A DNA stretch of 64,000 bases from an uncultured Solirubrobacterales bacterium (GCA_963788385.1 CAWBGR010000012.1:24843-88842); one strand, 5' to 3'; positions 36,314-61,380 are shown, counted from the first letter of the stretch. A program made the numbers and translations. Notes: generated by a model not told the origin, from the sequence alone.

Positions 36314-37063
36314 TCACAGCCACACCGTAGCGGCCAGCTCGCCGGCCAGTCGGTCGGCCACAGCAGCGCTTCGGCGCCCGGCACGCACCTGCGCGCGTGC
36401 GAGCAGCGCGAGTGAGCCGCTCAGCAGCACCACGTCCGCTTCGCGCAGCTGCGCGAGCGTCAAAGGCAGCTCGCGTGCATCGATACCCAGGCGCCGCGCG
36501 TGCTCGAGCACGGCGGCCCTGACGACACCCGGCAGAATCGAGCCGTCGAGCGGCGGCGTCGCGAGCACCCCGTCGCGCAGCAGGAACACGTTGGCCCGCG
36601 TCGTTTCGAGCAGTTCGTCCGAGCGGTTGACGAGCAGCGGTCGCACACCCGCCCCCGCGAGCCCCTCGATCTGCTCAAACCAGGATCGGTCGATCAGCTT
36701 GTGGGCCCCGGCGCCGCCCCTGACCCGAACCGCCATGAGCGTGACATTCGCCACCGGCAGCACGGCCGCACGATCCAGGGGCGCGATCTCGATCTCGATC
36801 GCCGGCGGCGAAGCCCCGTGCGGCAGCGCCTTGACGCGCAGTCGCGCGAGCGAGTGCCCTTCGGCGGCCTCCGCGAGCGCTGCGCCGAGTCCCGCTGGCA
36901 GCGCTGCGCCGTAGAGCAGGCGGACGCTCGCACGCAGCCGCGCCAGGTGACGGCTCGCCAGGTGCGGGCGCCCGTCGATCACCAGCAACGTCTCGAACAC
37001 GCCGAGGTCGGCCGCCGGCGCGCACACTGCGGCGAAGTCGAGCGGCGGTTCGGTCACGGCCAT
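36314..37063 (-). CDS. pabC: fold-type IV aminotransferase-like, probable aminodeoxychorismate lyase
   Basis: GVFETLLV, AHKLIDRS (Lys region), ETTRANVFLLRDGVLATPPLDGSILPGVVR. Divergent from pabAB. ATG at 37063; the rest of ORF 36314..38242 is antisense to pabAB. Confidence 0.75.
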   Translation of the reverse strand: MAVTEPPLDFAAVCAPAADLGVFETLLVIDGRPHLASRHLARLRASVRLLYGAALPAGLGAALAEAAEGHSLARLRVKALPHGASPPAIEIEIAPLDRAAVLPVANVTLMAVRVRGGAGAHKLIDRSWFEQIEGLAGAGVRPLLVNRSDELLETTRANVFLLRDGVLATPPLDGSILPGVVRAAVLEHARRLGIDARELPLTLAQLREADVVLLSGSLALLARAQVRAGRRSAAVADRLAGELAATVWL

Positions 37064-37090
37064 GGGCGCAATACTCGCGTAACGGCGATC

Positions 37091-39256
37091 ATGCGCCATG
37101 AGGGCCCGTTGACGACGCTCCTGATCGACAACCACGACTCGAACACCTTCAACCTTTTCCAGCTGCTGGCGCTGGTCGAGGGTAGCGAGCCGGTGGTCGT
37201 GCGCAACGACGAAGCCGAGTGGCTGGCGCTCGACGCCGGGCGCTTCGCCCGCTGCGTCATCTCCGCCGGCCCGGGACGGCCCGACCGCCCGCGCGACTTC
37301 GGCCTCTCGCGCAGCGCGCTGGCACAGACTGACCTTCCGGTGCTCGGCGTCTGTCTCGGGCACCAGGGCCTCGTGCTGGCCCACGGCGGCGAGGTCAGCG
37401 CCGCGCCGCGGCCCATGCACGGGCGGCGCAGCCGTATCTTCCACCACGGCTGCGAGTTGTTCGGGGGGATCCCACAGGGCTTTCTCGCGGTGCGCTATCA
37501 CTCGTTGTCGGTTCGCGAGCCGCTGCCCGCCGCACTCGAGGTCATCGCCCGCACGGCGTCGGGAACGGTGATGGCGGTCCGCCATCGCGAGCACCCGCAT
37601 TGGGGGGTGCAGTTTCACCCGGAGTCGGTGCAGACGGAGTGGGGCGCGCGGCTGCTCGAGAATTTCTGCCGCCTGGGAAGCGGGCGCAGCACAGGAGTGC
37701 GCAACGCACGCGGGCGCAACGGCGGCGGCGCCCCCGCTCCGGCGCCGACGCCCACGCCCACGCCGCGCGCCCGGCGCCCGGCGCAGGGGCTCGAGCTTGT
37801 CGTGCGCTCGGTGCGCCGGCCGCCGCTCGCCGAGGACGCCTTCGTGGAGCTCTACGGGGCGCAGCGCAACGCCTTCTGGCTCGACTCGAGCTGCGAAGTC
37901 CCGCCGCTCGGAGCGTTTTCCTACATGGGCGCGGGCGGCGGACCGCTGTCGGCGCTGATCTGCCACGACGTCGCCGCGCACCGCCTGACGGTCGATCGCG
38001 GCGGACGCCGCGAGACCCATGACACCGCGCTCTTCGACTGGCTTGACCGCGAGCTTGCCGAGCTCTCGGTCGCGGGCCGCGACCTCCCGTTCGAGTTCAT
38101 CGGGGGATTCGTCGGCTACCTTGGCTACGAGCTGAAGGCCGAGTGCGGGGGCGCGCTCGCGCATCGCTCGCTCCTCCCGGATGCTGCGCTGATGTTCGCC
38201 GACCGCGTGATCGCCTACGACCACACCGCGGATGAGGCTCACGCGATCTGCCTGACGACGTCAGCCGACCGCGCGGACGCGGCGAGCTGGGCCGAGCACA
38301 TCGCCGGCCGGCTGCGCCGCGTGCGCAGAGCCCCACCACCGCAGCCGAGCGATCCCGGCGGGCTCACGCATTTTGCGCTGCGCCGCGCCGCCGAGGATTA
38401 CCTCACCGACATCGAGACCTGCCAGCGGCTGCTCGCGGCCGGCGAGAGCTATGAGATCTGCCTCACCAACGAACTCCTCGCGCCGCCATGCACGAACACG
38501 CTCGGCCTGCACCGTGTGCTGCGCCGCGTCAACCCGGCCCCGTTCGCCGCGTTCCTGCGCCTGGGCGGCGTCGAGGTCTCAAGCTCCTCGCCTGAGCGCT
38601 TCCTTGCTCTCGACCGCTCCCGGCGCCTCGAAGCCAGGCCGATCAAGGGCACCGTTGCGCGCGGCGTGACCGTGAGCGAGGACCGCGAGGCGGCAGCCCG
38701 CCTGCGCCGCGCCGGCAAGGACCGCGCCGAGAACCTGATGATCGTCGACGTGCTGCGCAACGACCTCGGCCGGGTTGCCGAGATCGGCTCGGTCGCGGTG
38801 CCCAGTCTGATGGCCGTCGAGAGCTACGAGACCGTGCACCAGCTCGTCTCGACGGTCCATGCGCGGCTGCGCGACGGCGTGACCATCGTCGACGCGCTGC
38901 GTGCGTCCTTCCCGGGCGGCTCGATGACCGGCGCTCCAAAGACACGCACGATGGAGCTGCTCGACCGCATCGAGACCCGTCCGCGCGGCATCTACTCGGG
39001 CGCGATCGGCTACCTGTCGGCAGCCGGCGCCGCCGACCTCAGCATCGCGATCCGCACAATCGTCAACTCCACTCGCGCGATGACGATCGGCGCCGGCGGC
39101 GCGATCACCGTGCAGTCGGACCCCCGCGCCGAGTTGCGCGAGCTGCTGCTGAAGGCACGCGCGCCGCTCGAGGCCGTCGGGCTGGCGCAACACGGCCGCC
39201 GCGACAGCGCGAGGCTCGCCGGCGGCGCTCAGAACTCGACGTTCGCGGCGAGGTAG
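37091..39256 (+). CDS. pabAB: aminodeoxychorismate synthase, fused glutamine amidotransferase (PabA) + chorismate-binding (PabB) components
   Basis: N-terminal LLIDNHDSNTFNLFQ...PVLGVCLGHQG...GVQFHPES. Pro/Thr/Ala linker. C-terminal chorismate-binding motifs (SSSPERFL, ENLMIVDVLRND, FPGGSMTGAPK, GIYSGAIGY). Confidence 0.9.
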   Translation: MRHEGPLTTLLIDNHDSNTFNLFQLLALVEGSEPVVVRNDEAEWLALDAGRFARCVISAGPGRPDRPRDFGLSRSALAQTDLPVLGVCLGHQGLVLAHGGEVSAAPRPMHGRRSRIFHHGCELFGGIPQGFLAVRYHSLSVREPLPAALEVIARTASGTVMAVRHREHPHWGVQFHPESVQTEWGARLLENFCRLGSGRSTGVRNARGRNGGGAPAPAPTPTPTPRARRPAQGLELVVRSVRRPPLAEDAFVELYGAQRNAFWLDSSCEVPPLGAFSYMGAGGGPLSALICHDVAAHRLTVDRGGRRETHDTALFDWLDRELAELSVAGRDLPFEFIGGFVGYLGYELKAECGGALAHRSLLPDAALMFADRVIAYDHTADEAHAICLTTSADRADAASWAEHIAGRLRRVRRAPPPQPSDPGGLTHFALRRAAEDYLTDIETCQRLLAAGESYEICLTNELLAPPCTNTLGLHRVLRRVNPAPFAAFLRLGGVEVSSSSPERFLALDRSRRLEARPIKGTVARGVTVSEDREAAARLRRAGKDRAENLMIVDVLRNDLGRVAEIGSVAVPSLMAVESYETVHQLVSTVHARLRDGVTIVDALRASFPGGSMTGAPKTRTMELLDRIETRPRGIYSGAIGYLSAAGAADLSIAIRTIVNSTRAMTIGAGGAITVQSDPRAELRELLLKARAPLEAVGLAQHGRRDSARLAGGAQNSTFAAR

Positions 39257-42075
39257 GCGAGCGAGGCGCTCCACGAGCTGCCGGAGACCGTGCCCGCAAG
39301 GGTCAGCGGCATGATGAAGTGCAGGCCGGCGAAGGCCGCCGGCGGCGTGGTCGAGTCCTCGGCTGACAGCGTGAGCGTCGTGGAGTGCGAGGCCGTCGGG
39401 GCAGCGGGCGCCGTCGTCCCCGCGCCGGGATAGAGGTCTGACTCGCTCAGCGCCGGACAGCTCCCGGCGCCGGCTGGGAACAGGCAGGTCGTGGTGCCGT
39501 TGTTGGCGGCTTGCACCGAGATCTCGACGCCGCCGTCCTGCGTCGGGGCGCTGGCAGGGTCGCTGAGCGTCCAGTAGGCGGTCGGCGAGAGTGAGAGCAG
39601 TTCGCTCGCCAGCGCAGATTGTGTGGCCTCGCCCTTGATCGTCGTGTCGGTCGCGGCGGAGACCGCTGAGGGAATCACGGCCAGATCGGCGAGCTCGCCG
39701 GTCCACTGCTCGTTGGTCGGCATGTCGGCCCAGGTGCCGGTGTTGTTCATGAACCCGACCGTCCAGTAGCCGGCGTAGTTGAGGTCGCTGATCCCGGAGG
39801 TCTTGCTCGCGACCTGCGCACCATCGATGTACAGGGTCAACGTGGACGGCGTGAACACGGCGACGGCGAGATGCCATGCGTTGTTGTCGTAGGTCGCGGT
39901 GGAGGCCGCCTCGACGCCGGTGCCGCCGCTGATGCCGGCGACGACCTTGCCGCTGTTGTCCATCCAGATCTGGCGGTCGTGCGAGAGCCCGGCGCCGCTC
40001 TGTGCGGCGTCGTAGCCGATGATTCCGCCTCCCGTCGCGTGACTCGGCGCCTTGAACCACGCGACCAGCGAGAAGGTGTCGGGCGCCGAGGCTAGGGGAA
40101 TCGCGCCGGCTGTCTCCATGTAGCCGCTCGCCCCGCTCAGGGCGGCCGCGTAGCTCGACGTGCCCAGCGGGCCGGGGACCCCCAGCGTCACCGTGGCGCC
40201 CACCGCGGTGGCGTCGTCGTTGGCGCTCGAGGAGTCCGGCTCGACTTCGAAGAACGGGAAGGCCTCGCTCTCGGTCGTGCCGCTGTCGGTGAGTGGCCAG
40301 TAGAAGCCGGGAGCATCGGTGAGCATCTGCGCCTCGTAGGCGCCGAGGCTTGTCTCGCCGTGCAGGGTCGTGATCTGCGCGGCGCTCAGAGCCGAGGCGA
40401 AGTAGGCGAAATGCGCGAGCTCACCGGTCCAGTAGTCGTCAGTCGGCTGGTCGGTCCAGTTTGTCGCTGCGTTGAGGACGCCGATCTGCCAGTAGCCGCC
40501 GCTCGCCCCGCCCGAGGTGGCGCTGGCGTTGGTGACTGCCGTGCCCGCGTCGACGTAGACCTTCAGCCCGGACGAGTTCACCGTGGCAACGAGCAGATGC
40601 CACTGCCCGTTGTTGTAGGCGCTCGTCGAGGTCGCCTGGTAGTAGGACGAGGACTTGTGCACGCCGACGACGATCTTGCCGCTGTTATCCATCCACGCGG
40701 CGGGGTCGTTCCCGGTACCCGAGCCCGAACGGGCACTGTCGAAGGTGAGGATGCCGCCACCGCCGCTCCAGCCGCTGGGCACCCGGAACCACACCGCGAT
40801 CGTGAACGCAGCCGGGAGTGCGGCGTTGGCGGTCGCGGTCTCGGCCCAGCTCGTCCCGTCGGTGGCGCCGTCGAAGTACATCGCGCCGTCGTTCGCGAAC
40901 GGGCCAGCGTCGGATGGCGTCACGCCGCCCATCGGCGTCCCGAGATTGTTGTTGCCGGTGAGGTCGGGCAGCGACGCCACGACGGGCAGGCCGGTCGCCG
41001 TCGTCGAGGCCGATTGCAGGGGCCAGAACTCGCTCGGCGAGTCGGCGAGGACACGGGTTTCGAAGCTCGACTCGGTGCCCGATCCGCTGTTGTAGAGCGT
41101 CGTCACCTGCGCTGCCGACAGCGCCGACGGGAACACGGCGACCTCGGCGAGTGAGCCGGCGAGGTAGTAGCTCAAGGGCGTCGGGACGTAGACCGCGCCA
41201 TAGGCCCAGCCGACCGTCCAATAGCCGTCGTAGGCCTGAGCTGAGGTGGCGCTCGCGTTGGTGGCGACGGAGGTGCCGTTGACGTAGATCTTCAGCCCCG
41301 CGGTGGAGCTGAACGACGCCACGACGTAGTACCAGCTGCCGGTGTTGTAGGTGGCCGACGTGGTGGCAACCTGAGTGGTGCCGCCTGTGTACTCGCCGGC
41401 GGCGATGTGCCCTGAGTTGTCCATCCACAGGTTGGGCGCCCACCCCGCGGGCGTCCCGCTCTGGGAGGTCGCGAAGCCGACAATCTCGCCGCCGCTCGAG
41501 TAGCCCGAGGCGACATCGACCCAGGCTGCCAGCGTGAAGTTGCCGCCCGACGGGCTCGCGACCTTCTGTTGCGTCTCGAGCATGCCGGTCGACCCGTTGA
41601 AGCTAGCGGCGGCGGCGCTCAGCGGGCCGCTCGCGCCGAACGTAACGCCCCCGAGCGGGAACGCGTCGTCACCGTCGCCGGACGCATCGCTGGCGACCTC
41701 CAGCCCGCCCGTCGCGCTGGTGAGCGTCGCGGAACTCGGCGCTGAGGTGCCGGCGTTCGCGAATGTGCTCGTCAGTGAGCTCGGCAAGAGGCTCGAGAGC
41801 TCCGAGCCCGGCCATGGGTTCCCGGTGCAACTGGTGCTGTCGCTGCTGAACGGCGCGCTCGTCGCGCCGGTCGAGGTGCACGTGCCGCCGCCGGCCGGCG
41901 CGTTCGTCAGCACAACCGAGGCCGCGGTCGTCGTTCCGCTCCCCGTGATCGTCGCCGTGAACGCGGCCAGCGTCGGCGTCGTGGCCGCCACCAGCGCCAC
42001 GGAGAGGCTGAACAGGATCAACCGCCGGACCAGGCGCCCACTGGGCCGGCGCAGCTTGGCGGCGCGGCCGCTCAC
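39229..42075 (-). CDS. 948-aa secreted protein: SipW-type signal peptide, TasA-like N- and C-terminal segments, three internal LamG/concanavalin-A-like lectin modules
   Basis: GTG start. N-terminus RRLILFSLSVALVAATTPTLAAFTATITGSG. Three repeats carry W(V/F)...GGG(I)...WMDNSG(H/K)(I/V).(A/V)G...Y(N/D).(G/N).W(Y/H)...L(K/T).Y(V/I).G. The termini resemble gene 43507..44202. Confidence 0.8.
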   Translation of the reverse strand: MSGRAAKLRRPSGRLVRRLILFSLSVALVAATTPTLAAFTATITGSGTTTAASVVLTNAPAGGGTCTSTGATSAPFSSDSTSCTGNPWPGSELSSLLPSSLTSTFANAGTSAPSSATLTSATGGLEVASDASGDGDDAFPLGGVTFGASGPLSAAAASFNGSTGMLETQQKVASPSGGNFTLAAWVDVASGYSSGGEIVGFATSQSGTPAGWAPNLWMDNSGHIAAGEYTGGTTQVATTSATYNTGSWYYVVASFSSTAGLKIYVNGTSVATNASATSAQAYDGYWTVGWAYGAVYVPTPLSYYLAGSLAEVAVFPSALSAAQVTTLYNSGSGTESSFETRVLADSPSEFWPLQSASTTATGLPVVASLPDLTGNNNLGTPMGGVTPSDAGPFANDGAMYFDGATDGTSWAETATANAALPAAFTIAVWFRVPSGWSGGGGILTFDSARSGSGTGNDPAAWMDNSGKIVVGVHKSSSYYQATSTSAYNNGQWHLLVATVNSSGLKVYVDAGTAVTNASATSGGASGGYWQIGVLNAATNWTDQPTDDYWTGELAHFAYFASALSAAQITTLHGETSLGAYEAQMLTDAPGFYWPLTDSGTTESEAFPFFEVEPDSSSANDDATAVGATVTLGVPGPLGTSSYAAALSGASGYMETAGAIPLASAPDTFSLVAWFKAPSHATGGGIIGYDAAQSGAGLSHDRQIWMDNSGKVVAGISGGTGVEAASTATYDNNAWHLAVAVFTPSTLTLYIDGAQVASKTSGISDLNYAGYWTVGFMNNTGTWADMPTNEQWTGELADLAVIPSAVSAATDTTIKGEATQSALASELLSLSPTAYWTLSDPASAPTQDGGVEISVQAANNGTTTCLFPAGAGSCPALSESDLYPGAGTTAPAAPTASHSTTLTLSAEDSTTPPAAFAGLHFIMPLTLAGTVSGSSWSASLAYLAANVEF

Positions 42076-42206
42076 AGCGGTCTCCCCTCCGGCGCCCGCG
42101 ACGGCGGCCCGCCGCCGCCCCGCTCGCCCCCTGCGCTCGCGTGCTCGTTCCGAGCACCCAGGCGGCGCGTGTCTCTGTCAGAGCTTCGCCACATTGCCGC
42201 TTCCTG

Positions 42207-43484
42207 TCACCCGCGGGCTTCGGCTGCTTCGCGGCCGACGCTGAGCCTGGCGAGCACGCGGCCGCGAGGGAGGCGACGGCGGGCTCGGTCTGGCGCGAGC
42301 GTCTCGGTACCTTCGCGCAGCGCCAGCATGCCAACCGCGAGCGGAGACAGCACGATCGCCGCAACCAGCACCCAGGCCCAGATTGGCAGGATCGCGTGCG
42401 CTTGTAGCGTCGAGTTCGAGCGGCTTGCCAGGCGCGCCGCGATGATGCCGGCGTGACCGGGCTCGATCACCGTGTGCGTGCCGGTGATGCTGATACGCAA
42501 AGGCAGAACGCCGCCGTTGACGAGCCGCGCAAGGAAGTTCGCACCCGAATGGGAGGAGGCGGCCATCGTCACGCCGCCATGGTGCGCTCCACGCGCGGCG
42601 GCGCTGTGCCCACCGGCAGCGGCGGTTGTGACCCGTCCGGCGCTCGCGACCGCAACCCGCACGAACGGCCGGACCATGTACAGCGGCAATGCGAAGGCGC
42701 CGCCGACCGTCACCGAGCGCATCGCCGGGCGCAGAAAGCGGGGCAGTATGAGGCTGAGGATCGCCCCCGCCGCAAGTACCGCGAGAGCCCACGGAAGCCC
42801 GTTCACCACCCAGCCGAGGTCGGGGATGATGGCGACCGGCACACCGATGATCGAGGTGCGCGTGAGCTCCCAGCCGTCGTCTGAGGTGTTCAGGTCGCCG
42901 CGGGTGCGAAACGCGCCGCCGGGGAGAAGCTGTGCGACCCGGTGCATGTAGACCGCGCCGGTGCTCGGAACGTGGAAGGCGACGACCATCCCGCGCCGCA
43001 GCGGGGCGGCCCCGATCGGCCGGGTCAGCACGAGGCTCCCAGCCGGCGCCGTCGTTCCCATCGAGGGGGTCTGCATCACGAGCATGTCGCCGTGGGCGAT
43101 GAAGATCCACCCGCCGAGGGCGAGCGCGGCCAGCGCACCCAGAGCAACCGGCAGCCAGCGAGCCAGTCGCCGCGCACGATATGAGCGCCGCGCCGGCGAG
43201 CCTGGCGGCCGCCTCGAAGCTGCGGTTCGAACCTGGTCGCCTGCTGCGCTCGCGGCCGGCGCGAGTTGCCGGATTGCCGCGGCAGCGGGCTGCGCCGTGC
43301 GCTCCGGCGCGCGTGCGCCGGCCGGCTGAGCAGCGCCGCCGCGGCGGCGCCCGAAGATCCACGCGCCGAGCGCGGCGAGGATCAGCGTGCCGGCGACGGC
43401 CGCCAGCCGGCCGCGAAGCGGCCGAGGCACGCGGTTTGCCGGAGCAACTGCCCCGTCCGCGCGCCTCGGCTTGACCTGCGCCAT
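42207..43484 (-). CDS. signal peptidase I, S26B (SipW / Sec11 / archaeal-type, Ser-His) with N-terminal extra TM plus linker and ~170-aa C-terminal extension
   Basis: Boxes QTPSMGTTAPAGSLVL (Ser), VYMHRVAQ (His in place of Lys), FRTRGDLNTSDDGW (GDNN..D box). ATG at 43484 preceded by AAGAGG. TM helices flank the catalytic domain. Confidence 0.75.
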   Translation of the reverse strand: MAQVKPRRADGAVAPANRVPRPLRGRLAAVAGTLILAALGAWIFGRRRGGAAQPAGARAPERTAQPAAAAIRQLAPAASAAGDQVRTAASRRPPGSPARRSYRARRLARWLPVALGALAALALGGWIFIAHGDMLVMQTPSMGTTAPAGSLVLTRPIGAAPLRRGMVVAFHVPSTGAVYMHRVAQLLPGGAFRTRGDLNTSDDGWELTRTSIIGVPVAIIPDLGWVVNGLPWALAVLAAGAILSLILPRFLRPAMRSVTVGGAFALPLYMVRPFVRVAVASAGRVTTAAAGGHSAAARGAHHGGVTMAASSHSGANFLARLVNGGVLPLRISITGTHTVIEPGHAGIIAARLASRSNSTLQAHAILPIWAWVLVAAIVLSPLAVGMLALREGTETLAPDRARRRLPRGRVLARLSVGREAAEARG

Positions 43485-43506
43485 GACGATCGACCTCTTG
43501 GATCGA

Positions 43507-44202
43507 TTACTGGTTGAGCGTGAAGGTGAATCCCTGGGTGGCCTGGAGTCCCATGTCGTTGTTCGTCGCTGAGGTGTCGAGCTTGGTGCTCACGACGACG
43601 GTGTCGGAGGCGCCGGCGGCCAGGCCGGAGCCGATCGTGGCGGCACTCGTCAGCGTCGCGAGCGTGTAGGTGCTCGACAGCGCCGGGCAGGCACTGGCCT
43701 GCGACGGGTAGTAACAGACCGAGGCGCCGTTGCCGATCGTGATGTCGACCTTGCCGCAGAACCCGGCGGTGTCACTTCCGTAGAAGGTGCCGCTGCCGGC
43801 CGCCGTGCACGTCGCCGGTGTCACGGTGAAGGTCCCAGCGTTTGTCGTGCCGACATTGGTGAATGTCAGCGTCTGCGTGTTCGCCGTGCCGCCCGGGACC
43901 TGGCCGGTCGGTGCGCCGAAGGTGTCGATCGTGGTGCAGCTGTAGCTGTTGCCGCCCAGGATGGCGCCGCTCGCCACGCCGGCGGAATAACAGGTGTTGG
44001 AGCTGCCGACCTCCTTGAGCACGATCGTGCCGGCGGTCAGCGTGCCGTTCTGGGTGATCGTGGCGTTGAACGCACCGAGTGCGCCCATCGTCGTCAGGGC
44101 CAGAGCCGCGGCAACCGCTGCCCCGACCGCGGCGGTCGTCACAGCCTGCTGTTTTGACCGTGGCCGGGGATGCTGGTGATGTCGAATCTTGATCAAGCGC
44201 AT
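43507..44202 (-). CDS. TasA/camelysin-like secreted protein with SipW-type signal peptide (231 aa)
   Basis: ATG at 44202 (GAGGA upstream). Basic n-region, h-region AAVGAAVAAALALTTMGALG, then AFNATITQNGTLTAGTIVL, as in SipW substrates. Beta-rich Thr/Gly/Ser mature part with paired Cys. Confidence 0.7.
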   Translation of the reverse strand: MRLIKIRHHQHPRPRSKQQAVTTAAVGAAVAAALALTTMGALGAFNATITQNGTLTAGTIVLKEVGSSNTCYSAGVASGAILGGNSYSCTTIDTFGAPTGQVPGGTANTQTLTFTNVGTTNAGTFTVTPATCTAAGSGTFYGSDTAGFCGKVDITIGNGASVCYYPSQASACPALSSTYTLATLTSAATIGSGLAAGASDTVVVSTKLDTSATNNDMGLQATQGFTFTLNQ

Positions 44203-44626
44203 GCTCGTTTCGTCCTCGGAATCGTCGCGGCAGCGCCTCAAATTGCGTCGGCGCACCTGGTCTATTTGTCCGCGATATCGGTCCACGTCCTGGGCCGCTT
44301 GACAGCCGGAAGATTCCTTTCATTTCTTCGAAAACTGATGAACAGCCGCGAGCGCGTGCTTCGCGCGCGACGGCCACCGCCCGCGCGGCGCATGACGCGC
44401 GCACGGCAAGCTGATCGCCGCCGGTGCGGCGAGGCGCCGGCCGCACGAACGGACCCACTGCGTTCGGCTTCAGCGGGCGATCGCCGCGGTCGGTCTGCTG
44501 CTCGCTGGAGCCCGCCGATCCGCGTCTTGGCTCGGCGTACGACCGTCCCCCGCGATGTTCAGTTTGCGCGAGCGCTCCGCGCAGTCGCTGTGGCGCCGGG
44601 CGGGGCCCGGCGAACCGCCTCCCCGC

Positions 44627-50903: not shown

Positions 50904-53636
50904 CTACCCGGGGAGCGCGAGATGGAGATCAAACGCGAAGCTCAGGTGCCTGCGTGAGCCCGCCTGGCGCGGGTCGCGCAGTGGCCCTCTCTGATGATTG
51001 CTCCTGTTGCTCTGAAGCCGTCCGTCGCGCACGTCGCAGACGCTCGTGCTCCTGGCGAGAGGGCAGGCGACCTTCCGCTTGGCCGGAGCGCTCCCGGAAT
51101 CCGCGGATCCTGTCGCCGGCTCCTCCACGAAGCTCGTGGCAATCGTGAGCGCGTCGCCGTTGAAATCGTGCCACGTCCAGGTCGCGTCATAGATCCCCGG
51201 CTTCAGGCTCTTTATCGGCTTGCCAGACACGGTGTTGACGTCGCTCACCGTGATCGTCGGCTTCGTGCCATTCGCCGGCGTGATCGCCAGAAAAATGGGA
51301 TACGCGCTCGGGATGACCTCGTCGTTGGGACCGAGGAAGGACGCCTGCGCGCGCGCGGTGAACCGCCCGTAGACAGTCTCGCCGTCAACCGGCGAGGTGC
51401 TCGATATGTCGGCGACCTCCGTCTGCGTGAGTCCCCCGCTGCGGTCGTCGGCCTGCACGATCGCCGCGTCCGAGAAGCCCTCCGCCGACCCGCTCGCCGG
51501 GCAGATCCGGCCGGTCAGCGTCGCGCCGTTCTGGCCTGTGAGCCCGGCGACCGAACTGGCTGGTGACGGCGTTGACGGTGGCGCCCCGTAGTAGAGGCCG
51601 GGCTGGCAGCGGCTGCCGGCGGCGAGCACCGTCTCTCCGCCGTAGACCACCGCCCGCAGGTGGGCCAGGTGCAGCGTCGTCAGCACCATTCGTCCGTTGC
51701 TCAGCGTCAGGACGTCGCCGCCGGTCAGCGGCGGGGCGCCGTTGAACGGGCCGACCACAATCGTGCCGCGCTGGCCGGCGCGGCCGGTGAGCGTGTCAGC
51801 ACCCCGTGCGCGGGTCACGCTGTACTTGGCGCCGGGAACAAGACCGGTGCACTCGGCGGCTCCGAACTGCAGGTCGGCCGTGCACGTGGGGAAGCCCGTG
51901 AGCCGCCGCAACGGCAGCACGTCCGCAAGCGGGCTGCTGAACGTCGACTGCGCGCCGGGCTCGCCGAGCTTCACGGTGAGCTTGACGAGCGCTCCGGTCT
52001 CGTTGCCCTGCGGGTCGAGCGACGGCTCGACCGGCTGGGGCTGCGTGAACGCGCGGTTGTCGACCGAGCTGAAGGTGACCGCCTCGCCGGCGGAGATCGG
52101 CCCGGTCGCGATCGTCGAGGTGTCGGTCTGCGTGTTGCAGGTGTCAGTCGGCGAGTAGTCGGTGGCGCCGACCTCGAGCGTGAGGACGCCCGTCTGGAAG
52201 CACGGACCGACCGTCACAAAGCCGCCGCTGCGGTTGCTGACGTCGCCTGCGTTGTCGAGGTCGGACCAGCCGGTCCACCCTCCCTCCGCGAACGGACTGC
52301 CGCCGTTTCCGGTTGTGATGAAGTCCGGCAGCAGCGGCGCGCCGGAGTAGGTCACCGTGATGAGGTCGCGGTCGTCGCCAACGGCGAAGGGCGCCAGCGA
52401 CAGCGACCACGCACCGTCAGCGCCCGTGGTCGTGGAGGCCTGAACCACCTTGGTGGCGAGCGAGCTCGCGGGCGTGGTCGCACCCGAGATCGACGGTGCG
52501 CTCGCCGGCGTGCTCGCGCCCGAACCCCGCCGCTTGCGGTAAACGGCGACGGTGACCCGTACACCTGCGGTGTCTGAGCTGACGTTGCCGCTCACCGTGC
52601 TGCTGAACTGCGTCAAGTTGATCTGCGGGAGCGGCAGCGGGGATGCGGTCTGGGTCGTTCGCTGCACGCAGCCCCCGTCGTCGTTTGACCACATCTCCTG
52701 TATCAGGTACTCGTGGCCGCCGATGAGCTGGTCGTAGGGAGAGCCGTTCGCGGCGTAGCCGAGCGGGTTTCCTATCTGTGGGCCGGTCTCGCACTTGTCG
52801 GCCACCTCGTAGCCGTCGGGGTCCAGCCAGCCGGTGCCCTCGGGATCGGTGATCGCCTCCACCGTCTCGTGCGCGATCGTGTCGACCGTCGCCTCGGCGT
52901 CGGGATTACCTTCGGGATCGCCGCCCGGGACAGCTACGACCTCGACGATCGGGTCGATGATCACGCCGTAGATCGTGACGCCGTGGGCCCGGTTCATTTC
53001 CTCGTGGTAGCCGGCGAAGGTGTTGCTGCCGCAGGAGCCGACGGCGATGCATTCATCGACGTTCGCCGGCAGCAGCACGAACCAGAGGTTGCCCAGGCCG
53101 CGCTCGTCCGCCGGAGCGACCGAGTCGATCTCAGCCTGGACCTGGCCGTCGGTCACGCAGGTCTGCACGCCGTTCGGTGACGCGCAGCCACCCGACGCCG
53201 GATAGGCGTCGCCGTCGTCGATCGAGTCGCTCGCCGCGTTGAAGGCGATCGAGTAGCTGCCAAGCACAGCGGTGGAGCTACCGGTCTGCTGCCCGTACTG
53301 GCGCAGGACCGAGAAGACGTTGCTCGTCGTGCCGCTCGCGGCGGACGCGTCGGTCAGGAACTGCTTCACGAGCGGCTCGTAGCCCGGGGTGAAGGCGTAG
53401 CCGGCCGGCGCCCAGAAGATCGTGTGGACGACGACGTTCGCGGCCATCACCGCGCCGCCGTGGTAGTCGGCGGCCGTCTGATCGCCGGTCGCGATGTCGG
53501 TGTTCGCATACGAGGGGAAGAGCCCGAGCGCCCCACCGATACGCGGCTTGAACGTCGTGCTCGCCAGGGCGCTGCCGCTCCACAGCGCCAACACCGCGAA
53601 CGTCGCGGCCCCCAACCCGATAGCTCTGCGCATCAT
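50904..53636 (-). CDS. large secreted protein of unknown function (~910 aa)
   Basis: MMRRAIGLGAATFAVLALWSGSALAS signal peptide with GGAGG just upstream. N-terminal ~330-aa Cys-containing domain (YHGGAVM...IFWAP..., AHETVEAITDPEGTGW), then a long beta-rich Thr/Gly/Ser region. The longest ORF extends to 53888 but overlaps modC. Confidence 0.7.
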   Translation of the reverse strand: MMRRAIGLGAATFAVLALWSGSALASTTFKPRIGGALGLFPSYANTDIATGDQTAADYHGGAVMAANVVVHTIFWAPAGYAFTPGYEPLVKQFLTDASAASGTTSNVFSVLRQYGQQTGSSTAVLGSYSIAFNAASDSIDDGDAYPASGGCASPNGVQTCVTDGQVQAEIDSVAPADERGLGNLWFVLLPANVDECIAVGSCGSNTFAGYHEEMNRAHGVTIYGVIIDPIVEVVAVPGGDPEGNPDAEATVDTIAHETVEAITDPEGTGWLDPDGYEVADKCETGPQIGNPLGYAANGSPYDQLIGGHEYLIQEMWSNDDGGCVQRTTQTASPLPLPQINLTQFSSTVSGNVSSDTAGVRVTVAVYRKRRGSGASTPASAPSISGATTPASSLATKVVQASTTTGADGAWSLSLAPFAVGDDRDLITVTYSGAPLLPDFITTGNGGSPFAEGGWTGWSDLDNAGDVSNRSGGFVTVGPCFQTGVLTLEVGATDYSPTDTCNTQTDTSTIATGPISAGEAVTFSSVDNRAFTQPQPVEPSLDPQGNETGALVKLTVKLGEPGAQSTFSSPLADVLPLRRLTGFPTCTADLQFGAAECTGLVPGAKYSVTRARGADTLTGRAGQRGTIVVGPFNGAPPLTGGDVLTLSNGRMVLTTLHLAHLRAVVYGGETVLAAGSRCQPGLYYGAPPSTPSPASSVAGLTGQNGATLTGRICPASGSAEGFSDAAIVQADDRSGGLTQTEVADISSTSPVDGETVYGRFTARAQASFLGPNDEVIPSAYPIFLAITPANGTKPTITVSDVNTVSGKPIKSLKPGIYDATWTWHDFNGDALTIATSFVEEPATGSADSGSAPAKRKVACPLARSTSVCDVRDGRLQSNRSNHQRGPLRDPRQAGSRRHLSFAFDLHLALPG

Positions 53637-53884
53637 GCCTCCTCGGCTCGTCCAGAAGTCGCGTGGCCGCGCGCACGACTCCATGGCGGCAGCTTCGCAT
53701 GTCGGTGTGGTCCACGACCGCAGCCCAGGATACGAGCAGCGGGCCTCGAGCGCGACTGGGAACGATGGGCATGGCTCTCCACGGCGCATTACGGCGGCCG
53801 CCGTGTGCGATTTTCTGGCCGCGATCGCGATGCCGCAAGCGCCGCTGGCACACGGTTGGTCGCGGGGAACTTTTGCCCTTCGGG

Positions 53885-54916
53885 TCACGCTCGGGGCGGC
53901 TCATGAGTGCGGGCAAACAGGCGGACGTGAGCGGGCTCGACGCGCAGACCGACGGCTGAGCCTTCGCTGAGGCTGCTCGCCGTCTCGTCGCCGAGCCGCG
54001 TCTGGACGACGAATCGGCTGAGTCTGATCAGGAGGCCGCCCTCGTAAGGGCGTACCCCCACGACGTGGTCGATCAGCGTGCTCGTGCGTGGGTTCGCGAG
54101 CTTTAGCTCCCAGGGGTGGATCGCGATCTGCACCGGCCCTTCGGCGCGGCTGTCGCTGACCAGCTCGCCGCCGCCGTCCAGCGTGACCGCCGAGCCGTGG
54201 GCGCCCGGCGTCGCGGTGGCGGAGACGATGTTCGCGCCGGTGAGCGCGGCGACGACTGCGCTCGCGGGACGGTCGAGCAGCTCGGATGCGCTGCCCACCT
54301 GCTCGAGATGACCCCTGTCGAGCACCGCGACGCGTTGAGCGAGAGCGCTGGCGTCCTCGAAGGAGTGTGTGACCAGCACGACCGGCAGCGCCAGCTTTTG
54401 CAAACGGTCGCCGAGCTCGTCGCGCACCTGCGCATGCGTCGTCGCATCGAGTGCGGCGAACGGCTCGTCGAGGAGCAACACGCGGGGTTCGCGCGCGAGC
54501 GCGCGCGCGAGCGCCACGCGCTGGCGCTCTCCGCCGGAGAGCTGCGGAGGGCGCGCGCCGGCGAGGTGCGCAATCCCGAGACGCTCAAGCAGGTCGGGGC
54601 GGTTGCGCTTGGCGGCGAAACGAACGTTCGCTGCCACCGTGAGGTGGGGAAACAAGCCGTAGTCCTGGGGCACGTATCCGACCCGGCGATGCTCCGGCTC
54701 CAACCGCACCCCGTTCTCAGTGTCGAGCCAGACATCACCGGCGAGCGTGATGCGCCCGCGGGATGGGCGCTCGAGCCCTGCGATGGTGCGCAGAAGTGAG
54801 CTCTTGCCGGCACCCGACGGCCCGACCAGGGCAACTGTTTCAACACCGAGCGACAGGGCGACCGTGAGCTCGAATGCGCGTCGGGCTAACGCGATATCGA
54901 TCTCGAGCTGGGCCAT
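53885..54916 (-). CDS. modC: molybdate ABC transporter ATP-binding protein with C-terminal TOBE/Mop domain
   Basis: Walker A GPSGAGKSS, signature LSGGERQRVALARAL, Walker B LLLDEPF. C-terminal ~110-aa TOBE-like region. Follows modA-modB. Confidence 0.85.
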   Translation of the reverse strand: MAQLEIDIALARRAFELTVALSLGVETVALVGPSGAGKSSLLRTIAGLERPSRGRITLAGDVWLDTENGVRLEPEHRRVGYVPQDYGLFPHLTVAANVRFAAKRNRPDLLERLGIAHLAGARPPQLSGGERQRVALARALAREPRVLLLDEPFAALDATTHAQVRDELGDRLQKLALPVVLVTHSFEDASALAQRVAVLDRGHLEQVGSASELLDRPASAVVAALTGANIVSATATPGAHGSAVTLDGGGELVSDSRAEGPVQIAIHPWELKLANPRTSTLIDHVVGVRPYEGGLLIRLSRFVVQTRLGDETASSLSEGSAVGLRVEPAHVRLFARTHEPPRA

Positions 54917-55725
54917 GAGCCGAGGAATTTCGCGGCGAGGAGGATGGTGCCGCTGAAGATGAGCAGGAGAACTCCGATCGCGACGGCCTGGTCGAGGTTG
55001 GCGTCGAACAGGCTGTAAACGGCGGTTGCAAGAGTCTGGGTAACGCCCTGAAAGCTACCCGCGAACAGGATCGTGGCCCCGAACTCGCCTATTCCGCGGG
55101 CGAAGGCGAGCGCCGCGGAGGCACCCAGGCCCACCCGCGCGAGCGGTATGGCCACACGCACCATCCGCCGCAGTCGTCCGGCCCCAAGGGTCGCGGCGAC
55201 ATCGATCAGCGTCGAGTCGATCGCCTCGAATGCCGCGATCGCACCGCGAATGTAGAACGGGCTGGCGACGAACGTGATCGCCATCACCACGGCTGTGGGC
55301 GTGAACAGGACGTTCACCCCGAGCACGTGGAGCGCGTGTCCGAGCAGTCCGAGCCGACCATAGGCGACGAGTAGCGCGATGCCCGAGACCGCCGGCGGCA
55401 TCACGAGCGGTAACTCGATCAGCGTGATCACGAGCCTGCGCCCGCGAAAGCGGTTTCTTCCGATCACGTAGGCGAGCGGCGTCCCGAGCCCGATCGTGAG
55501 CGCCATCGCGACCGCGTTGGTCTTGAGCGAGACGACGATCGCGTCGGTCGTGACCGGCTGGCCGAGTTCGTCGATGAGCCGTCCCAGCGGTTGATAGGTG
55601 ACGAGCGCGACGATAGGCACGAGCAGGAAGCCCATGACGAGCGCAATCACCAGGCCGAGCGCGACTACCACGGCGATACGTCCCAGCGAGGAAGGTGTCC
55701 TCGCTCGGACGTAGCCGCCGATCAC
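54886..55725 (-). CDS. modB: molybdate ABC transporter permease
   Basis: EAA loop region AATLGAGRLRRMVRVAIPLARVGL and 5-6 TM helices. GTG at 55725 lies 8 nt after the modA stop; the upstream part of the ORF is Arg/Ser-rich and overlaps modA. Confidence 0.85.
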   Translation of the reverse strand: MIGGYVRARTPSSLGRIAVVVALGLVIALVMGFLLVPIVALVTYQPLGRLIDELGQPVTTDAIVVSLKTNAVAMALTIGLGTPLAYVIGRNRFRGRRLVITLIELPLVMPPAVSGIALLVAYGRLGLLGHALHVLGVNVLFTPTAVVMAITFVASPFYIRGAIAAFEAIDSTLIDVAATLGAGRLRRMVRVAIPLARVGLGASAALAFARGIGEFGATILFAGSFQGVTQTLATAVYSLFDANLDQAVAIGVLLLIFSGTILLAAKFLGSWPSSRSISR

Positions 55726-55732
55726 TGCGAGG

Positions 55733-56515
55733 TCATCCCTTGCCGAAGCCGGCCGCCCGCAGAAGCCTCTGGCCCTTCGACGACAGCACGAGCTTGATGA
55801 ACGCTTGGGCTGCCGCCAGGTTCGGGGTTGCCTTGACGACCGCGATGAAGTCCTGCGTATGCGGCATCGCCGCCGCCGGCAGCAGGATCGGCGTGACCTT
55901 GTTCTTTGCTGCCAGTGCGTCGGTGATGTAGACGAAGCCGACGTCGCCCTGCCCGGCCGCGATCTGGGCCACGACCTGGGTGACATCGGTCTCCTCGCTC
56001 ACGATGTTCGCGTCCGCCGCGGCCGTGATACCCAGGTTCGCGAAGGCCGATGACGCGTAGTCGCCGCATGGGACGGTGGCGTTGCAGACGACGATCTTCA
56101 CGCCGGGATTGGTGATGTCGGCCACGGACTTGATGTGGGCCGGATTGTCCTTCGGCACGATCATGACGAGCAGGTTCGTCGCAAACTCGACCGGCTTGTA
56201 CACCAGTCCGGCGGTGTACAGCGCCTCGGGATCCTTGAAGTTCGCGGCCGCGTACACGTCGGCCGGCGCGCCCTGCTCGATGTCCGTCTCAAGCGCGCCG
56301 GAGCCGTTGAAGGTGTAGTTCTCAAACGGCGCGATGTTCGGAAATACGTTAGCCAGGGACGCTGCTCCCAGGATGTTCAGCCGCACGTGCGCGTCGCGCG
56401 CAACCGGCGCAGCCTGCCCCACCGCCGAGTTTGCCAGGACCGCGCAGGCCCCGATCGCACCGGTCACGGCCACCGCCGCGAAGCGGCGTTTCGTGGCCAT
56501 CGAACTCATCCTCAT
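55733..56515 (-). CDS. modA: molybdate ABC transporter substrate-binding protein
   Basis: Signal peptide. LNILGAASLANVF...ADVYAAANF...FATNLLVMIVPKDNP...IVVCNATVPCGDYA, typical of ModA. AGGAGGA RBS upstream of the ATG. Confidence 0.9.
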   Translation of the reverse strand: MRMSSMATKRRFAAVAVTGAIGACAVLANSAVGQAAPVARDAHVRLNILGAASLANVFPNIAPFENYTFNGSGALETDIEQGAPADVYAAANFKDPEALYTAGLVYKPVEFATNLLVMIVPKDNPAHIKSVADITNPGVKIVVCNATVPCGDYASSAFANLGITAAADANIVSEETDVTQVVAQIAAGQGDVGFVYITDALAAKNKVTPILLPAAAMPHTQDFIAVVKATPNLAAAQAFIKLVLSSKGQRLLRAAGFGKG

Positions 56516-59733: not shown

Positions 59734-61311
59734 TCAGCCATCGGCGGACGCGCTGGGGCTTGCGGGCTGCCACAACTGCGAGACGGGGCTGGGGCGCCCG
59801 ATCAGGAAGCCCTGTGCGTAGTCGACGCCGATCCGGCGAAGCTCATCCAGAGTGGCGTGGTCTTCGACGCCTTCGGCGATCGTCTCGAGCCCAAGCTGTC
59901 GTGCGACGCCGACGATCGCGTGCACGATCTGGCGGCTCTCCGGGTCGTTCAGCATGTCGCGCACGAACTGAACGTCGATCTTCAGATAGTCGACCGGCAG
60001 CTGGTGCAGGTAGGTGAAGGCGGCGTAGCCGACGCCGAAGTCGTCGAGTGCGAACTTGCAGCCGAGGGTGTGCAGCCGTGTCGCGAAGATCCGTGCGGCA
60101 GCGAGGTTGTCGGCGACGGCGGTCTCGGTTATCTCGAAGGTGAGGTTGCCGGCGACAGCGCCGCCGATCAGGATCGCCTCCTCGATTCGCTCGATTCCGC
60201 GGCTGGCTGACATCGTGCGGGCCGAGAGGTTGACGGCGACGCGATGGCCCGCCGCAGCGAGCTCGATCGCTCGATCGGTGACCCACCCGTCGATCACGCC
60301 GATCAGGTCGTAGCGTTCCGCGGCGAGCACGAACTCGCGCGGCTCGAGCAGGTCTTCGCCGCCGACGCTGCGGCGCATCCGCACGAGCAGCTCGACCTGC
60401 CCATCCCGTTCGCCGCCGTTCAGGTTGATGATCGGCTGGCCGTAGAGAACGAAGCGGTCCTGCTCCAGCGCCGAGTAGATCATCTCCGTGTACCAGGCGA
60501 GCTCCTGGGCGGCGAGTGCCTCGTGGCGACGGTCGGTGATGTCGGTCGACTCGACACAGACCGCGTCGATCGCCCCACTGTCGTCGCGCAGCGGAAACCG
60601 CGTCGTGATGAACACGCGCTCCCGGCCACCGCGCATGCGCACCTCCTCCTCGCGGATCGTCTGGCCGGCCAGCACCAGGCGCTCGGTGGCGTGAACCGTG
60701 TCGATCGAGGCAGGCGGCAGCAGCGTGCGGTCGCGCTGCCCGACGATCCGCTCGCGACGCACGCCGTAGAAGCGCTCGAATTCGCGGTTGACGAGCCGGT
60801 AGCGGAAGTCAGCGCCCTTGACGAAGATCACCGCCGGTGTGTTGTCGATCACCGAACGCAACGTCTGCTCGCTCTCGCGTGACAGTTGCGCCAGCGCGCG
60901 CCGTTCGGTGCTGTCGTTCAGATGTGAGAGGAAGCACAGTGGCTCGCCCGATTCGTCACGGATCAGCTCCGCGTGGACGCGCGCCCACAGAACCGAGTGG
61001 TCCTTGCGCGTGTAGCGCTTCTCGCGCTCCGACGTGGCCGACCCGCCGGCGAGCGCGGCGGCCATGAACTCGCGATCCGCCGCGACGTCCTCGGCGTGGG
61101 TGAAGTCCTGAAAGGCGGCGGCCCGCAGCTCGTCGGGGGAATACCCAAGCAGCAGGCAATAGGCGTCGTTGATCGCGAGCCAGCGGCCGTCCAGTGCGGC
61201 CACGCTGATCGCGCTTGGCGAGCGCTCGAAAGCGGCACGCAGCATCTCATCGGACGCGTGCGGCCAAGTCTCCGGCGAGCCGGCGTCCGCAATGCTGCGA
61301 GGGACCGCCAT
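59734..61311 (-). CDS. PAS/PAC sensor domains + EAL-domain c-di-GMP phosphodiesterase (no GGDEF domain seen)
   Basis: Two PAS-like segments. EAL domain with ELLVR, NLS, EITET, DDFGVGY, KID, AEGVE and QGFL catalytic blocks intact. ATG at 61311 (GGGAAGG upstream); the longest ORF uses TTG at 61344. Confidence 0.9.
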   Translation of the reverse strand: MAVPRSIADAGSPETWPHASDEMLRAAFERSPSAISVAALDGRWLAINDAYCLLLGYSPDELRAAAFQDFTHAEDVAADREFMAAALAGGSATSEREKRYTRKDHSVLWARVHAELIRDESGEPLCFLSHLNDSTERRALAQLSRESEQTLRSVIDNTPAVIFVKGADFRYRLVNREFERFYGVRRERIVGQRDRTLLPPASIDTVHATERLVLAGQTIREEEVRMRGGRERVFITTRFPLRDDSGAIDAVCVESTDITDRRHEALAAQELAWYTEMIYSALEQDRFVLYGQPIINLNGGERDGQVELLVRMRRSVGGEDLLEPREFVLAAERYDLIGVIDGWVTDRAIELAAAGHRVAVNLSARTMSASRGIERIEEAILIGGAVAGNLTFEITETAVADNLAAARIFATRLHTLGCKFALDDFGVGYAAFTYLHQLPVDYLKIDVQFVRDMLNDPESRQIVHAIVGVARQLGLETIAEGVEDHATLDELRRIGVDYAQGFLIGRPSPVSQLWQPASPSASADG

Positions 61312-61380
61312 GGGGATGACCTTCCCGGGCGAGCGGCGCCGCAACGGACGCTCGCACGCTCATATGGGCTGATCGCCGTC

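Follow-up and report, generated by a model that had tools for sequence, protein, structure and literature searches.

In a 64,000-nucleotide stretch of DNA from an uncultured Solirubrobacterales bacterium (GCA_963788385.1 CAWBGR010000012.1:24843-88842; this whole stretch is referred to below as the window), three adjacent minus-strand genes, here called A, B and C, appear to make up a single operon that produces a secreted TasA-superfamily fibre, and we put the probability of this reading at roughly 0.6. Four observations carry it. Protein A is a remote homologue of the TasA superfamily, protein B is homologous to S26B signal peptidases and has an intact catalytic triad, protein C is an A-like protein split into two segments, and the three genes are syntenic in related genomes. 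That their joint function would be to build a fibre is argued by analogy with characterized members of the superfamily. The genes are as follows.

43507..44202, minus strand: gene A, an open reading frame (ORF) of 231 aa counted from its ATG, predicted to encode a Cys-rich, acidic TasA-superfamily subunit precursor, the proposed major fibre subunit.
42207..43484, minus strand: gene B, an ORF of 425 aa, encoding a predicted dedicated signal peptidase of the S26B (Sec11/SipW) type with extra modules.
39229..42075, minus strand: gene C, an ORF of 948 aa, encoding an apparent A paralogue with three inserted Laminin_G_3 domains, the proposed lectin-bearing (adhesin) subunit.

An earlier annotation of this DNA, the original prediction, had described these three ORFs; their coordinates and the spacers of 22 nt between A and B (43485-43506) and 131 nt between B and C (42076-42206) are as given there, and all of the peptides that it quoted (GALGAFNATITQNGTLTAGTIVL, TPSMGT, YMHRV, RTRGDLNTSDD and PTLAAFTATITGSGTTTAASVVL) are present in the translations. 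Shine-Dalgarno-like purine runs lie 6-10 nt 5′ of all three start codons: GAGGA is followed after 10 nt by the ATG of A, AAGAGG after 9 nt by the ATG of B, and GGAGGGGAG after 6 nt by the GTG of C. For A, an upstream GTG at 44286 is a possible longer start. Judged by this arrangement, A, B and C are a self-contained three-gene operon amid housekeeping genes.

The predicted mature form of A has 188 aa, a mass of 18.4 kDa and an isoelectric point (pI) of ~4.05. It has 113 close homologues, and an exhaustive profile search recovered no fewer than 677 cluster representatives of its family at E≤1e-3, with 372 at E≤1e-10. The link to TasA appears among the distant members. In a sample of 82, each matching the A profile at E≤1e-19, PF12389 (Peptidase_M73, TasA/camelysin) was matched by 25, the SipW-dependent signal peptide model TIGR04088 by 18, the TasA model NF046066 by 13 and TIGR04089 by 5; when ten distant members were scanned individually, half exceeded the PF12389 gathering score of 22.5 bits. 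A more diverse profile built with distant members (A3), which was needed to reach TasA, aligned with Bacillus subtilis TasA in hhalign over 105 columns with a probability of 90.1% and an E value of 1.6e-6. In a Foldseek search with the AlphaFold2 model of A, the top match in the PDB was the TasA fibre 8aur_A (probability 1.00, 181 columns); 5of1_A was matched at a probability of 0.98, and donor-strand pilins appeared lower in the list at low probability. On the strength of the distant-member model matches, the hhalign alignment and the top Foldseek match, we place A in the TasA superfamily, as what these sequence and model comparisons indicate is a divergent member outside the curated TasA family. 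The 231-aa protein had been called TasA-like from the outset, and it is so at the level of remote evidence only.

Six Cys residues are conserved in the A family, at positions 71, 89, 132, 149, 163 and 172, and are predicted to pair within the chain as 71-89, 132-149 and 163-172. The C-terminal Gln is nearly invariant as well (...TLNQ or ...SISQ, then stop; 43507-43512 in the window). A conserved terminal residue of this kind is unusual and could mark a point of contact or cross-linking in a polymer. Isopeptide cross-links, as in BsaA and archaeal threads, were considered as a feature of the family and rejected, as the family has no conserved Lys.

The A precursor begins with a candidate signal peptide:

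44074..44202, minus strand: predicted SipW-type signal peptide of A, residues 1-43, with cleavage placed after ...TMGALG.

Cleavage at this position would generate a mature protein starting with AFNATITQNG..., a putative donor strand. The segment LGAFNATITQ-NGTLTAGTIVL of A was aligned by hhalign to WAAFNDIKSKDATFASGTLDL of TasA, whose mature start we checked against 8aur, in which the chain begins at A28 with AFNDIK; the AF-N-A/D...F-x-S-G-T-L/I-x-L block was aligned to TasA exactly as had been proposed. The A-F-x-A-T-I-T motif put forward for A is upheld at three positions in particular: across 72 homologues F45 and A47 are invariant and I49 is nearly so, as are L42 and G43. The best-conserved block of the family thus sits right after the predicted cleavage site, and the alternation of F45, A47 and I49 fits either a donor strand or a peptidase recognition element. 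When all ORFs of the window were scanned, an AF-x-A-T-I...S/T-V/I-V-L motif and the A-family hidden Markov model (HMM) matched A and C only. Neither protein is matched directly by TIGR04088 or TIGR04089. The n-region of A is MRLIKIRHHQHPRPRSKQQ, which has no RR motif and is variable among orthologues, and that of C contains VRRLILF, which is ambiguous as a twin-arginine motif. Export by the twin-arginine translocation (Tat) pathway, which is used in the haloarchaeal Tafi system, was rejected because the motif is not consistent.

The third gene encodes the A-like sequence a second time, in two parts:

41680..42075, minus strand: N-terminal A-like segment of C, residues 1-132, with signal peptide, AFTATITGSG, first strands and Cys66/Cys83.
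39571..41658, minus strand: triple laminin-G (LamG) insert of C, approximately residues 140-835, from Pfam and sequence inspection.
39232..39534, minus strand: C-terminal A-like segment of C, residues 848-948, including Cys864/Cys873.

As predicted at the start, C carries three Laminin_G_3 domains (Pfam, 2.7e-47, three stretches, the best at 163-324) behind the same N-terminal motif as A, and each LamG repeat contains WMDNSG(H/K)(I/V)(A/V)(A/V)G, at residues 217, 462 and 705. In BLAST, A 2-147 aligned with C 4-133 (32% identity, E 2e-5) and A 150-229 with C 848-922 (33% identity, E 9e-5). An HMM from a shallow A alignment (A1) likewise matched C in two pieces, positions 21-134 at C 24-132 (i-E 1.9e-10) and 146-208 at C 848-906 (i-E 2.7e-5), and a split match of the A-family HMM (~10-135 and ~137-225) was found in almost every C orthologue. 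These alignments identify C as an A paralogue whose fold would be split by the three LamG domains. C keeps Cys pairs equivalent to 71/89 and 163/172 of A and lacks an equivalent of the 132/149 pair, which flanks the insertion point; the missing pair both locates the insertion and suggests how the disulfides of A are paired. Orthologues of C have one to three LamG domains and range from 278 to ~960 aa.

Between the two candidate substrates lies the peptidase gene, whose product can be divided as follows:

42825..43097, minus strand: catalytic domain of B, approximately residues 130-220, with Ser141-His181-Asp203 (in TPSM, YMHRV and TSDDGW).
42300..42821, minus strand: C-terminal module of B, approximately residues 222-395, with the second to fourth transmembrane (TM) helices, TM2, TM3 and TM4, and a beta domain between TM3 and TM4; present family-wide.
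43191..43484, minus strand: N-terminal extension of B, approximately residues 1-98, Arg/Ala/Pro-rich with one hydrophobic helix; predicted local distance difference test (pLDDT) score <50.

S141, M142, H181, G196, D203 and W205 are invariant in 39 B orthologues. The B family profile matched SEC11A at 2.8e-10 and SEC11C at 2.9e-10, and in the SEC11A alignment S141/M142 fall on SM, H181 on HRV and D203 on the second D of GDNNAVDD; the residues so aligned correspond to the SEC11A triad Ser56-His96-Asp122. In the AlphaFold2 model of B the catalytic domain has a pLDDT of 80-90, and Foldseek returned SEC11C (7p2q_A, E 2.2e-5, probability 1.0, target TM score 0.57) and SEC11A (7p2p_A, E 6.6e-5, probability 1.0), with the bacterial SpsB and LepB scoring below them. 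A peptidase profile run over the ORFs of the window matched B alone. The assignment of B to S26B is thus sustained; the GDNN..D box that had been recognized in it holds for its last residue, the invariant D203, but not for its first Asp (D197), which is not conserved and is V, I or A in Acidimicrobiales. Pfam Peptidase_S26 was detected in 3 of 21 B-family members, at E 0.049. Since B scores below the cut-offs of both TIGR02228 and the SipW model NF046067 (14.9 bits against 190 for the latter), it is, by these profile comparisons, an S26B-type enzyme of its own divergent subfamily rather than a SipW equivalog.

The large size of B, which had been remarked on as more than twice that of SipW, is accounted for by the family-wide C-terminal module together with the clade-specific N-terminal extension of ~98 aa. 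TM1 spans residues 99-128. In the model, helices at 224-246 and 249-271 are followed by strands at 277-364 and a helix at 368-395. The extra beta domain is a predicted extracytoplasmic domain of ~90 aa with a conserved VNTG-LP, TM4 has a conserved WWGW, and G325, L327, P328, W369, W371 and P381 are conserved across the family within the module. By the positive-inside rule, the catalytic and the extra beta domains would both be outside the cell. No Pfam family and no PDB sequence matched the C-terminal module, and whole-model Foldseek of B is dominated by the catalytic domain. Two identities for the module were rejected: DUF5305 (PF17231) gave no match to B and matched 1 of 21 members at E 0.42, and a relationship to accessory subunits of the signal peptidase complex found no support. 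The N-terminal extension is present in the window and one related locus (L001), and other orthologues start ~20-30 residues before TM1; its hydrophobic helix (residues ~24-48) is followed by a very Arg-rich linker.

To place the trio in a wider context, we compared 53 related loci by tblastn and ORF analysis. The best genomic match was a Solirubrobacteraceae metagenome-assembled genome (MAG) from SPRUCE peat, in which A is 98% identical. Relatives were found in Solirubrobacterales, Acidimicrobiales/Acidimicrobiaceae, a few Frankiaceae and Jatrophihabitans, unclassified Actinomycetota and one Dormibacteria MAG, and most of the loci come from bog, fen or soil metagenomes. All homologues that bear a name in the sources consulted are "hypothetical protein" except one B homologue, annotated by the Joint Genome Institute (JGI) as signal peptidase I. 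Co-occurrence of the three genes in related genomes had been anticipated, and A, B and C were on one strand within ~4 kb in 39 of the 53 loci, with further cases cut by contig ends (L001, L024, L031, L046) or frameshifted (L052). The order is A-B-C or A-A-B-C in close Solirubrobacterales, A-C-B in Acidimicrobiales, and B-A-C or C-A-B in a few loci. Retention of linkage despite this rearrangement argues for functional coupling of the three genes. All-against-all clustering of the locus ORFs revealed no conserved neighbour family beyond the trio.

These data bear directly on the possibility that A, B and C are unrelated neighbours whose shared motif is a coincidence or a compositional artefact of Ala/Thr/Gly-rich, high-GC proteins. 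The host genome has a GC content of ~70%, high-GC genomes produce many spurious ORFs, and all three proteins do have a low-complexity-like composition rich in A/T/G/S. Synteny that extends over two actinobacterial orders and beyond with altered gene order is, however, hard to reconcile with coincidence, and so are the A HMM matches to both ends of C at E 1e-10 or better in dozens of orthologues, the invariance of the catalytic residues of B, and the restriction of the motif to A and C within the window. Chance co-location is effectively refuted by the synteny and profile results.

Two features of the related loci concern gene dosage and neighbourhood. Tandem A paralogues, ~60-70% identical, occur in L002, L003, L005, L006, L009 and L040, and suggest lineages in which A has specialized into major and minor subunits; only one A is present in the window. 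GGDEF genes, together with GGDEF plus HD-GYP-like genes, adjoin the trio in L004, L028, L036, L039, L041, L043 and L051, with two in tandem directly downstream in L004 (L004:12338-16951). This hints at control by cyclic di-GMP (c-di-GMP), as in other matrix systems. The window has no equivalent GGDEF gene adjacent to its trio.

The roles of A and C could in principle be exchanged: the working product would be C, a large lectin or polysaccharide binder, secreted or at the surface, and A would be its chaperone, cap or anchor, a TapA-like role in reverse. C is the largest and most elaborate of the products, a TasA-fold partner that acts as a chaperone through strand complementation is known from Roske et al. 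(PMC10151520), and the two A copies in L002, L003, L005, L006 and L040 suggest specialized A variants. We nevertheless consider this arrangement improbable. In the window, as in most loci, A comes first in the operon, and orphan extra copies of A occur without C (L009, L012, L017, L023, L037), in at least two cases with a full trio on another contig of the same MAG (L012 with L011; L037 with L010). Furthermore, the polymer is made of the small subunit in all characterized relatives, and in Tafi the LamG protein accounts for ~1% of subunits (PMC11821415).

With A as the main building block, a fibre pathway can be outlined on the model of TasA, archaeal bundling pili and Tafi. A and C would be exported, most likely by Sec, by way of their unusual signal peptide, and the membrane peptidase B would remove it using Ser141, His181 and Asp203. 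Cleavage would expose AFNATITQ... in A and AFTATITG... in C, and this N-terminal strand would then insert into the incomplete beta-sandwich of the next subunit by donor-strand exchange. In this manner A may polymerize into a thin extracellular filament, the shaft of the fibre, with its three predicted intrachain disulfides as stabilizers. The LamG domains of C would occupy a surface loop that A closes with Cys132-Cys149, and C could serve as the tip or initiator of the fibre or be incorporated only occasionally; the domains that it exposes would bind glycans or ligands and so mediate adhesion or cross-link the matrix. For B, the predicted extracytoplasmic beta domain may provide an accessory or assembly function built into the enzyme.

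A number of results weigh against the assignment of these genes to a fibre. Of the profile matches to which the original prediction had looked, Laminin_G_3 was recovered in C, but A has no direct match to Peptidase_M73 or to the SipW-signal models; searched against Pfam and NCBIfam it has no match of any kind at E≤1, none of its 72 close homologues matches the Peptidase_M73/TasA or SipW-signal models, and neither the single sequence nor the profile found a meaningful match among PDB sequences. The PF12389 matches of the distant members mostly cover model positions 4-89 of 196, the N-terminal third, and hhalign of the shallow A1 profile against TasA gave a probability of just 7%. The AlphaFold2 model of A is confident at residues 100-231 and poor at 29-100, and its match to 8aur_A is modest (TM score 0.39, E 5e-3). 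For B, the TIGR02228 score was 26.4 bits (E 5e-6) against a cut-off of 51.85, and if the helix of its N-terminal extension were inserted in the membrane, the catalytic domain would face the wrong side, an awkward topology. The operon contains no anchor (LPXTG, sortase or TafF-like), adapter or regulator, its neighbours are housekeeping genes, and all of the sequences compared derive from MAGs.

Several of these points would be expected if the locus were a module for secretion and nothing else, in which A and C are soluble or surface proteins, camelysin-like in one case and carbohydrate-binding through LamG in the other, that share a non-canonical signal peptide requiring its own S26B enzyme and do not polymerize. 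Most of the sequence similarity to TasA and camelysin falls within the signal peptide and first strands, the TIGR04088 and TIGR04089 models recognized in distant members describe classes of SipW-dependent signal found on diverse cargo, and anchor and adapter genes are missing from the operon. On the other hand, the best-conserved residues follow the cleavage site in an alternating hydrophobic pattern that extends beyond the signal peptide itself, and the two halves of the A fold are both preserved in C on either side of its insert, a feature for which a shared signal alone would hardly account. The best fold match of A is a fibre subunit, TasA, followed at low probability by donor-strand pilins, and the experimentally studied superfamily members in the papers cited here (TasA, AbpA, AbpX, CanA, the 0406 threads and Tafi) all form filaments. 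We regard secretion without polymerization as unlikely, although it is an account to be taken seriously, and favour the fibre.

If the fibre reading is extended to all of the related loci, a broader picture can be drawn, which as a whole we regard as doubtful. A widespread and unrecognized clade of donor-strand fibres would exist in uncultured soil and peat Actinomycetota (Solirubrobacterales, Acidimicrobiales) and Dormibacteria. Its lectins, being inserted in the pilin fold, would allow the lectin subunit to be placed anywhere along the fibre and not at the tip only. The domain fused to B would couple cleavage to the hand-off and polymerization of subunits, and the three genes together would form a minimal, chaperone-free assembly machine, functionally analogous to the multi-subunit signal peptidase complex of eukaryotes.

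The sequences on either side of the operon include two features that border it:

44203..44335, minus strand: leader/promoter region 5′ of A, conserved and comparatively AT-rich (GTTTTCGAAGAAATGAAAGGAATC...GACCGATATCGCGGACAAATAGACC).
36500-39256, plus strand: PabA-PabB fusion ORF, up to 918 aa with the longest possible start.

A is preceded by a 424-nt intergenic region and then a gene for a transporter of the major facilitator superfamily. The leader is shared by the window with L001 and L002, and in part with L003, although protein A is 88% identical in L002 and 77% identical in L003. It contains no match to the sigma-70 consensus and no Rfam family, and no riboswitch was found 5′ of A. A scan for promoters and terminators found nothing. 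At the other end, C converges with the PabA-PabB gene, whose glutamine amidotransferase (PabA-like) and chorismate-binding (PabB-like) domains are encoded from about residue 207 on; the 3′ end of C overlaps this ORF by 28 nt, an arrangement in which an intervening terminator would have no space, and none was detected.

The only c-di-GMP riboswitch of the window, a c-di-GMP-I element (RF01051, 61378-61454, minus strand, 46.6 bits, above the gathering threshold), lies directly 5′ of a PAS-PAS-EAL phosphodiesterase gene (59734-61344, minus strand), ~17 kb from the fibre operon. Such a leader would be a c-di-GMP sensor on a c-di-GMP-degrading enzyme. Elsewhere in the window, a 994-aa ORF (50904-53888, minus strand) has no significant Pfam domain, the best being Phi_1 at E 0.003. 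It is codirectional with and immediately downstream of genes for an ATP-binding cassette (ABC) transporter ATPase (53885-54916) and permease (54886-55986), and its start overlaps the end of the ATPase gene by 4 nt.

TasA-type fibres are an emerging cross-domain solution for building biofilm matrices, and experimental work on them has been confined to Bacillota and a few archaea. Abundant uncultured Actinomycetota of peat and soil would carry a compact three-gene version, from lineages in which we found no cultured or experimentally studied example in the literature searched. This version stands out for a Cys-rich subunit, LamG domains placed within the subunit fold, a Sec11-like peptidase to which a predicted extracytoplasmic module without family assignment is fused, and the minimal layout itself. 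The locus offers a testable minimal system for asking how a Sec11-like peptidase hands its substrates to a self-assembling polymer, and the LamG domains suggest how the hosts might attach to plant or Sphagnum polysaccharides. As a practical matter, our alignments A1-A4 can serve as profile seeds to annotate the A family and B-type peptidases. No concept is overturned; the architecture fits a framework already proposed for the TasA superfamily.

The original prediction knew of no characterized cluster of this kind in a high-GC actinobacterial-type genome, and no characterized TasA/SipW system from actinobacteria was found in the literature searched. A LamG subunit with a dedicated signal peptidase I (SPase I) has a precedent in Tafi (PMC11821415). 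The closest bacterial comparison is the tapA-sipW-tasA operon of B. subtilis (PMC9674648, PMC10151520). Both are three-gene operons with an S26B peptidase between or beside two substrates; in both, a special signal peptide and a mature N-terminus of the form AF(N)-...F-x-S-G-T-L-x-L are common to the two substrates, and the second substrate is related to the major subunit, which is a jelly roll in TasA and a putative one in A. Assembly involves donor-strand exchange, which is only proposed here. The differences are equally clear. A is very divergent from TasA, with six conserved Cys against none in the TasA sequence used, and is smaller (188 aa when mature), without the C-terminal tail of TasA. 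B has an additional TM-beta-domain-TM module and the N-terminal extension that SipW lacks, and the host, an uncultured actinobacterium, lies outside the Bacillota. C bears three inserted LamG domains that TapA, a chaperone or initiator, does not have. The accessory partner had been set apart from TapA for this reason; the triple-LamG architecture is confirmed, but C is itself an A paralogue and so conceptually closer to TapA or TafC than had been supposed.

In Clostridium perfringens, BsaA (TIGR04090; PMC11580942) is also a SipW-dependent matrix protein encoded beside a sipW-type peptidase gene in a Gram-positive host. BsaA polymers contain intermolecular isopeptide bonds; in the A family no Lys is conserved, and TIGR04090 was touched by 1 of the 82 distant A-family members at E 0.018. 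Archaeal bundling pili provide a further precedent (PMC9245690), and loci of the TasA superfamily frequently include a gene for an SPase I, in some as a fusion with an accessory module, along with genes for accessory, minor and tip proteins; Actinomycetota sequences have been placed in the central TasA cluster (bioRxiv 10.64898/2026.01.04.697558). Like the locus described here, AbpX/AbpA and other superfamily loci encode a major subunit together with minor subunits or tip proteins and a dedicated SPase I of an unusual type, and the subunits are acidic, with a pI of ~4. They differ in that AbpX-linked peptidases have ten TM helices or a DUF5305 fusion, whereas B has a different extra module; the AbpX donor strand has an acidic position 4 for Ca2+ coordination, where the A family has A or G; and bacterial AbpX loci include S-layer homology (SLH) or LPXTG anchors and c-di-GMP genes that are absent from the operon here.

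Haloarchaeal Tafi, from a different domain of life, is with tapA-sipW-tasA the closest analogue of the trio. It consists of the major subunit TafA, the tip adhesin TafC, the SPase I TafD, the adapter TafE and the anchor TafF (PMC11821415; PMC12337348). TafC combines a pilin-like domain with laminin-G and is at the tip in its authors' structure-prediction model, and knockout of TafD abolishes the fimbriae (PMC11821415). Tafi subunits have Tat signals, whereas A lacks a twin-arginine and the VRRLILF of C is ambiguous, and Tafi has an adapter and an anchor with no TafE-like or TafF-like counterpart in our operon. TafC has one LamG domain appended at its C-terminus; in C orthologues, one to three are inserted in the pilin-like fold, and C matches the NCBIfam TafC model NF052521 at 3e-7 (29.9 bits against a cut-off of 410) in the LamG region only. 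In both systems, a single cluster encodes a small major subunit, a larger subunit in which pilin-like and laminin-G/ConA-like lectin domain types occur together, in differing arrangements, and a dedicated SPase I, with assembly by donor-strand exchange, established or predicted.

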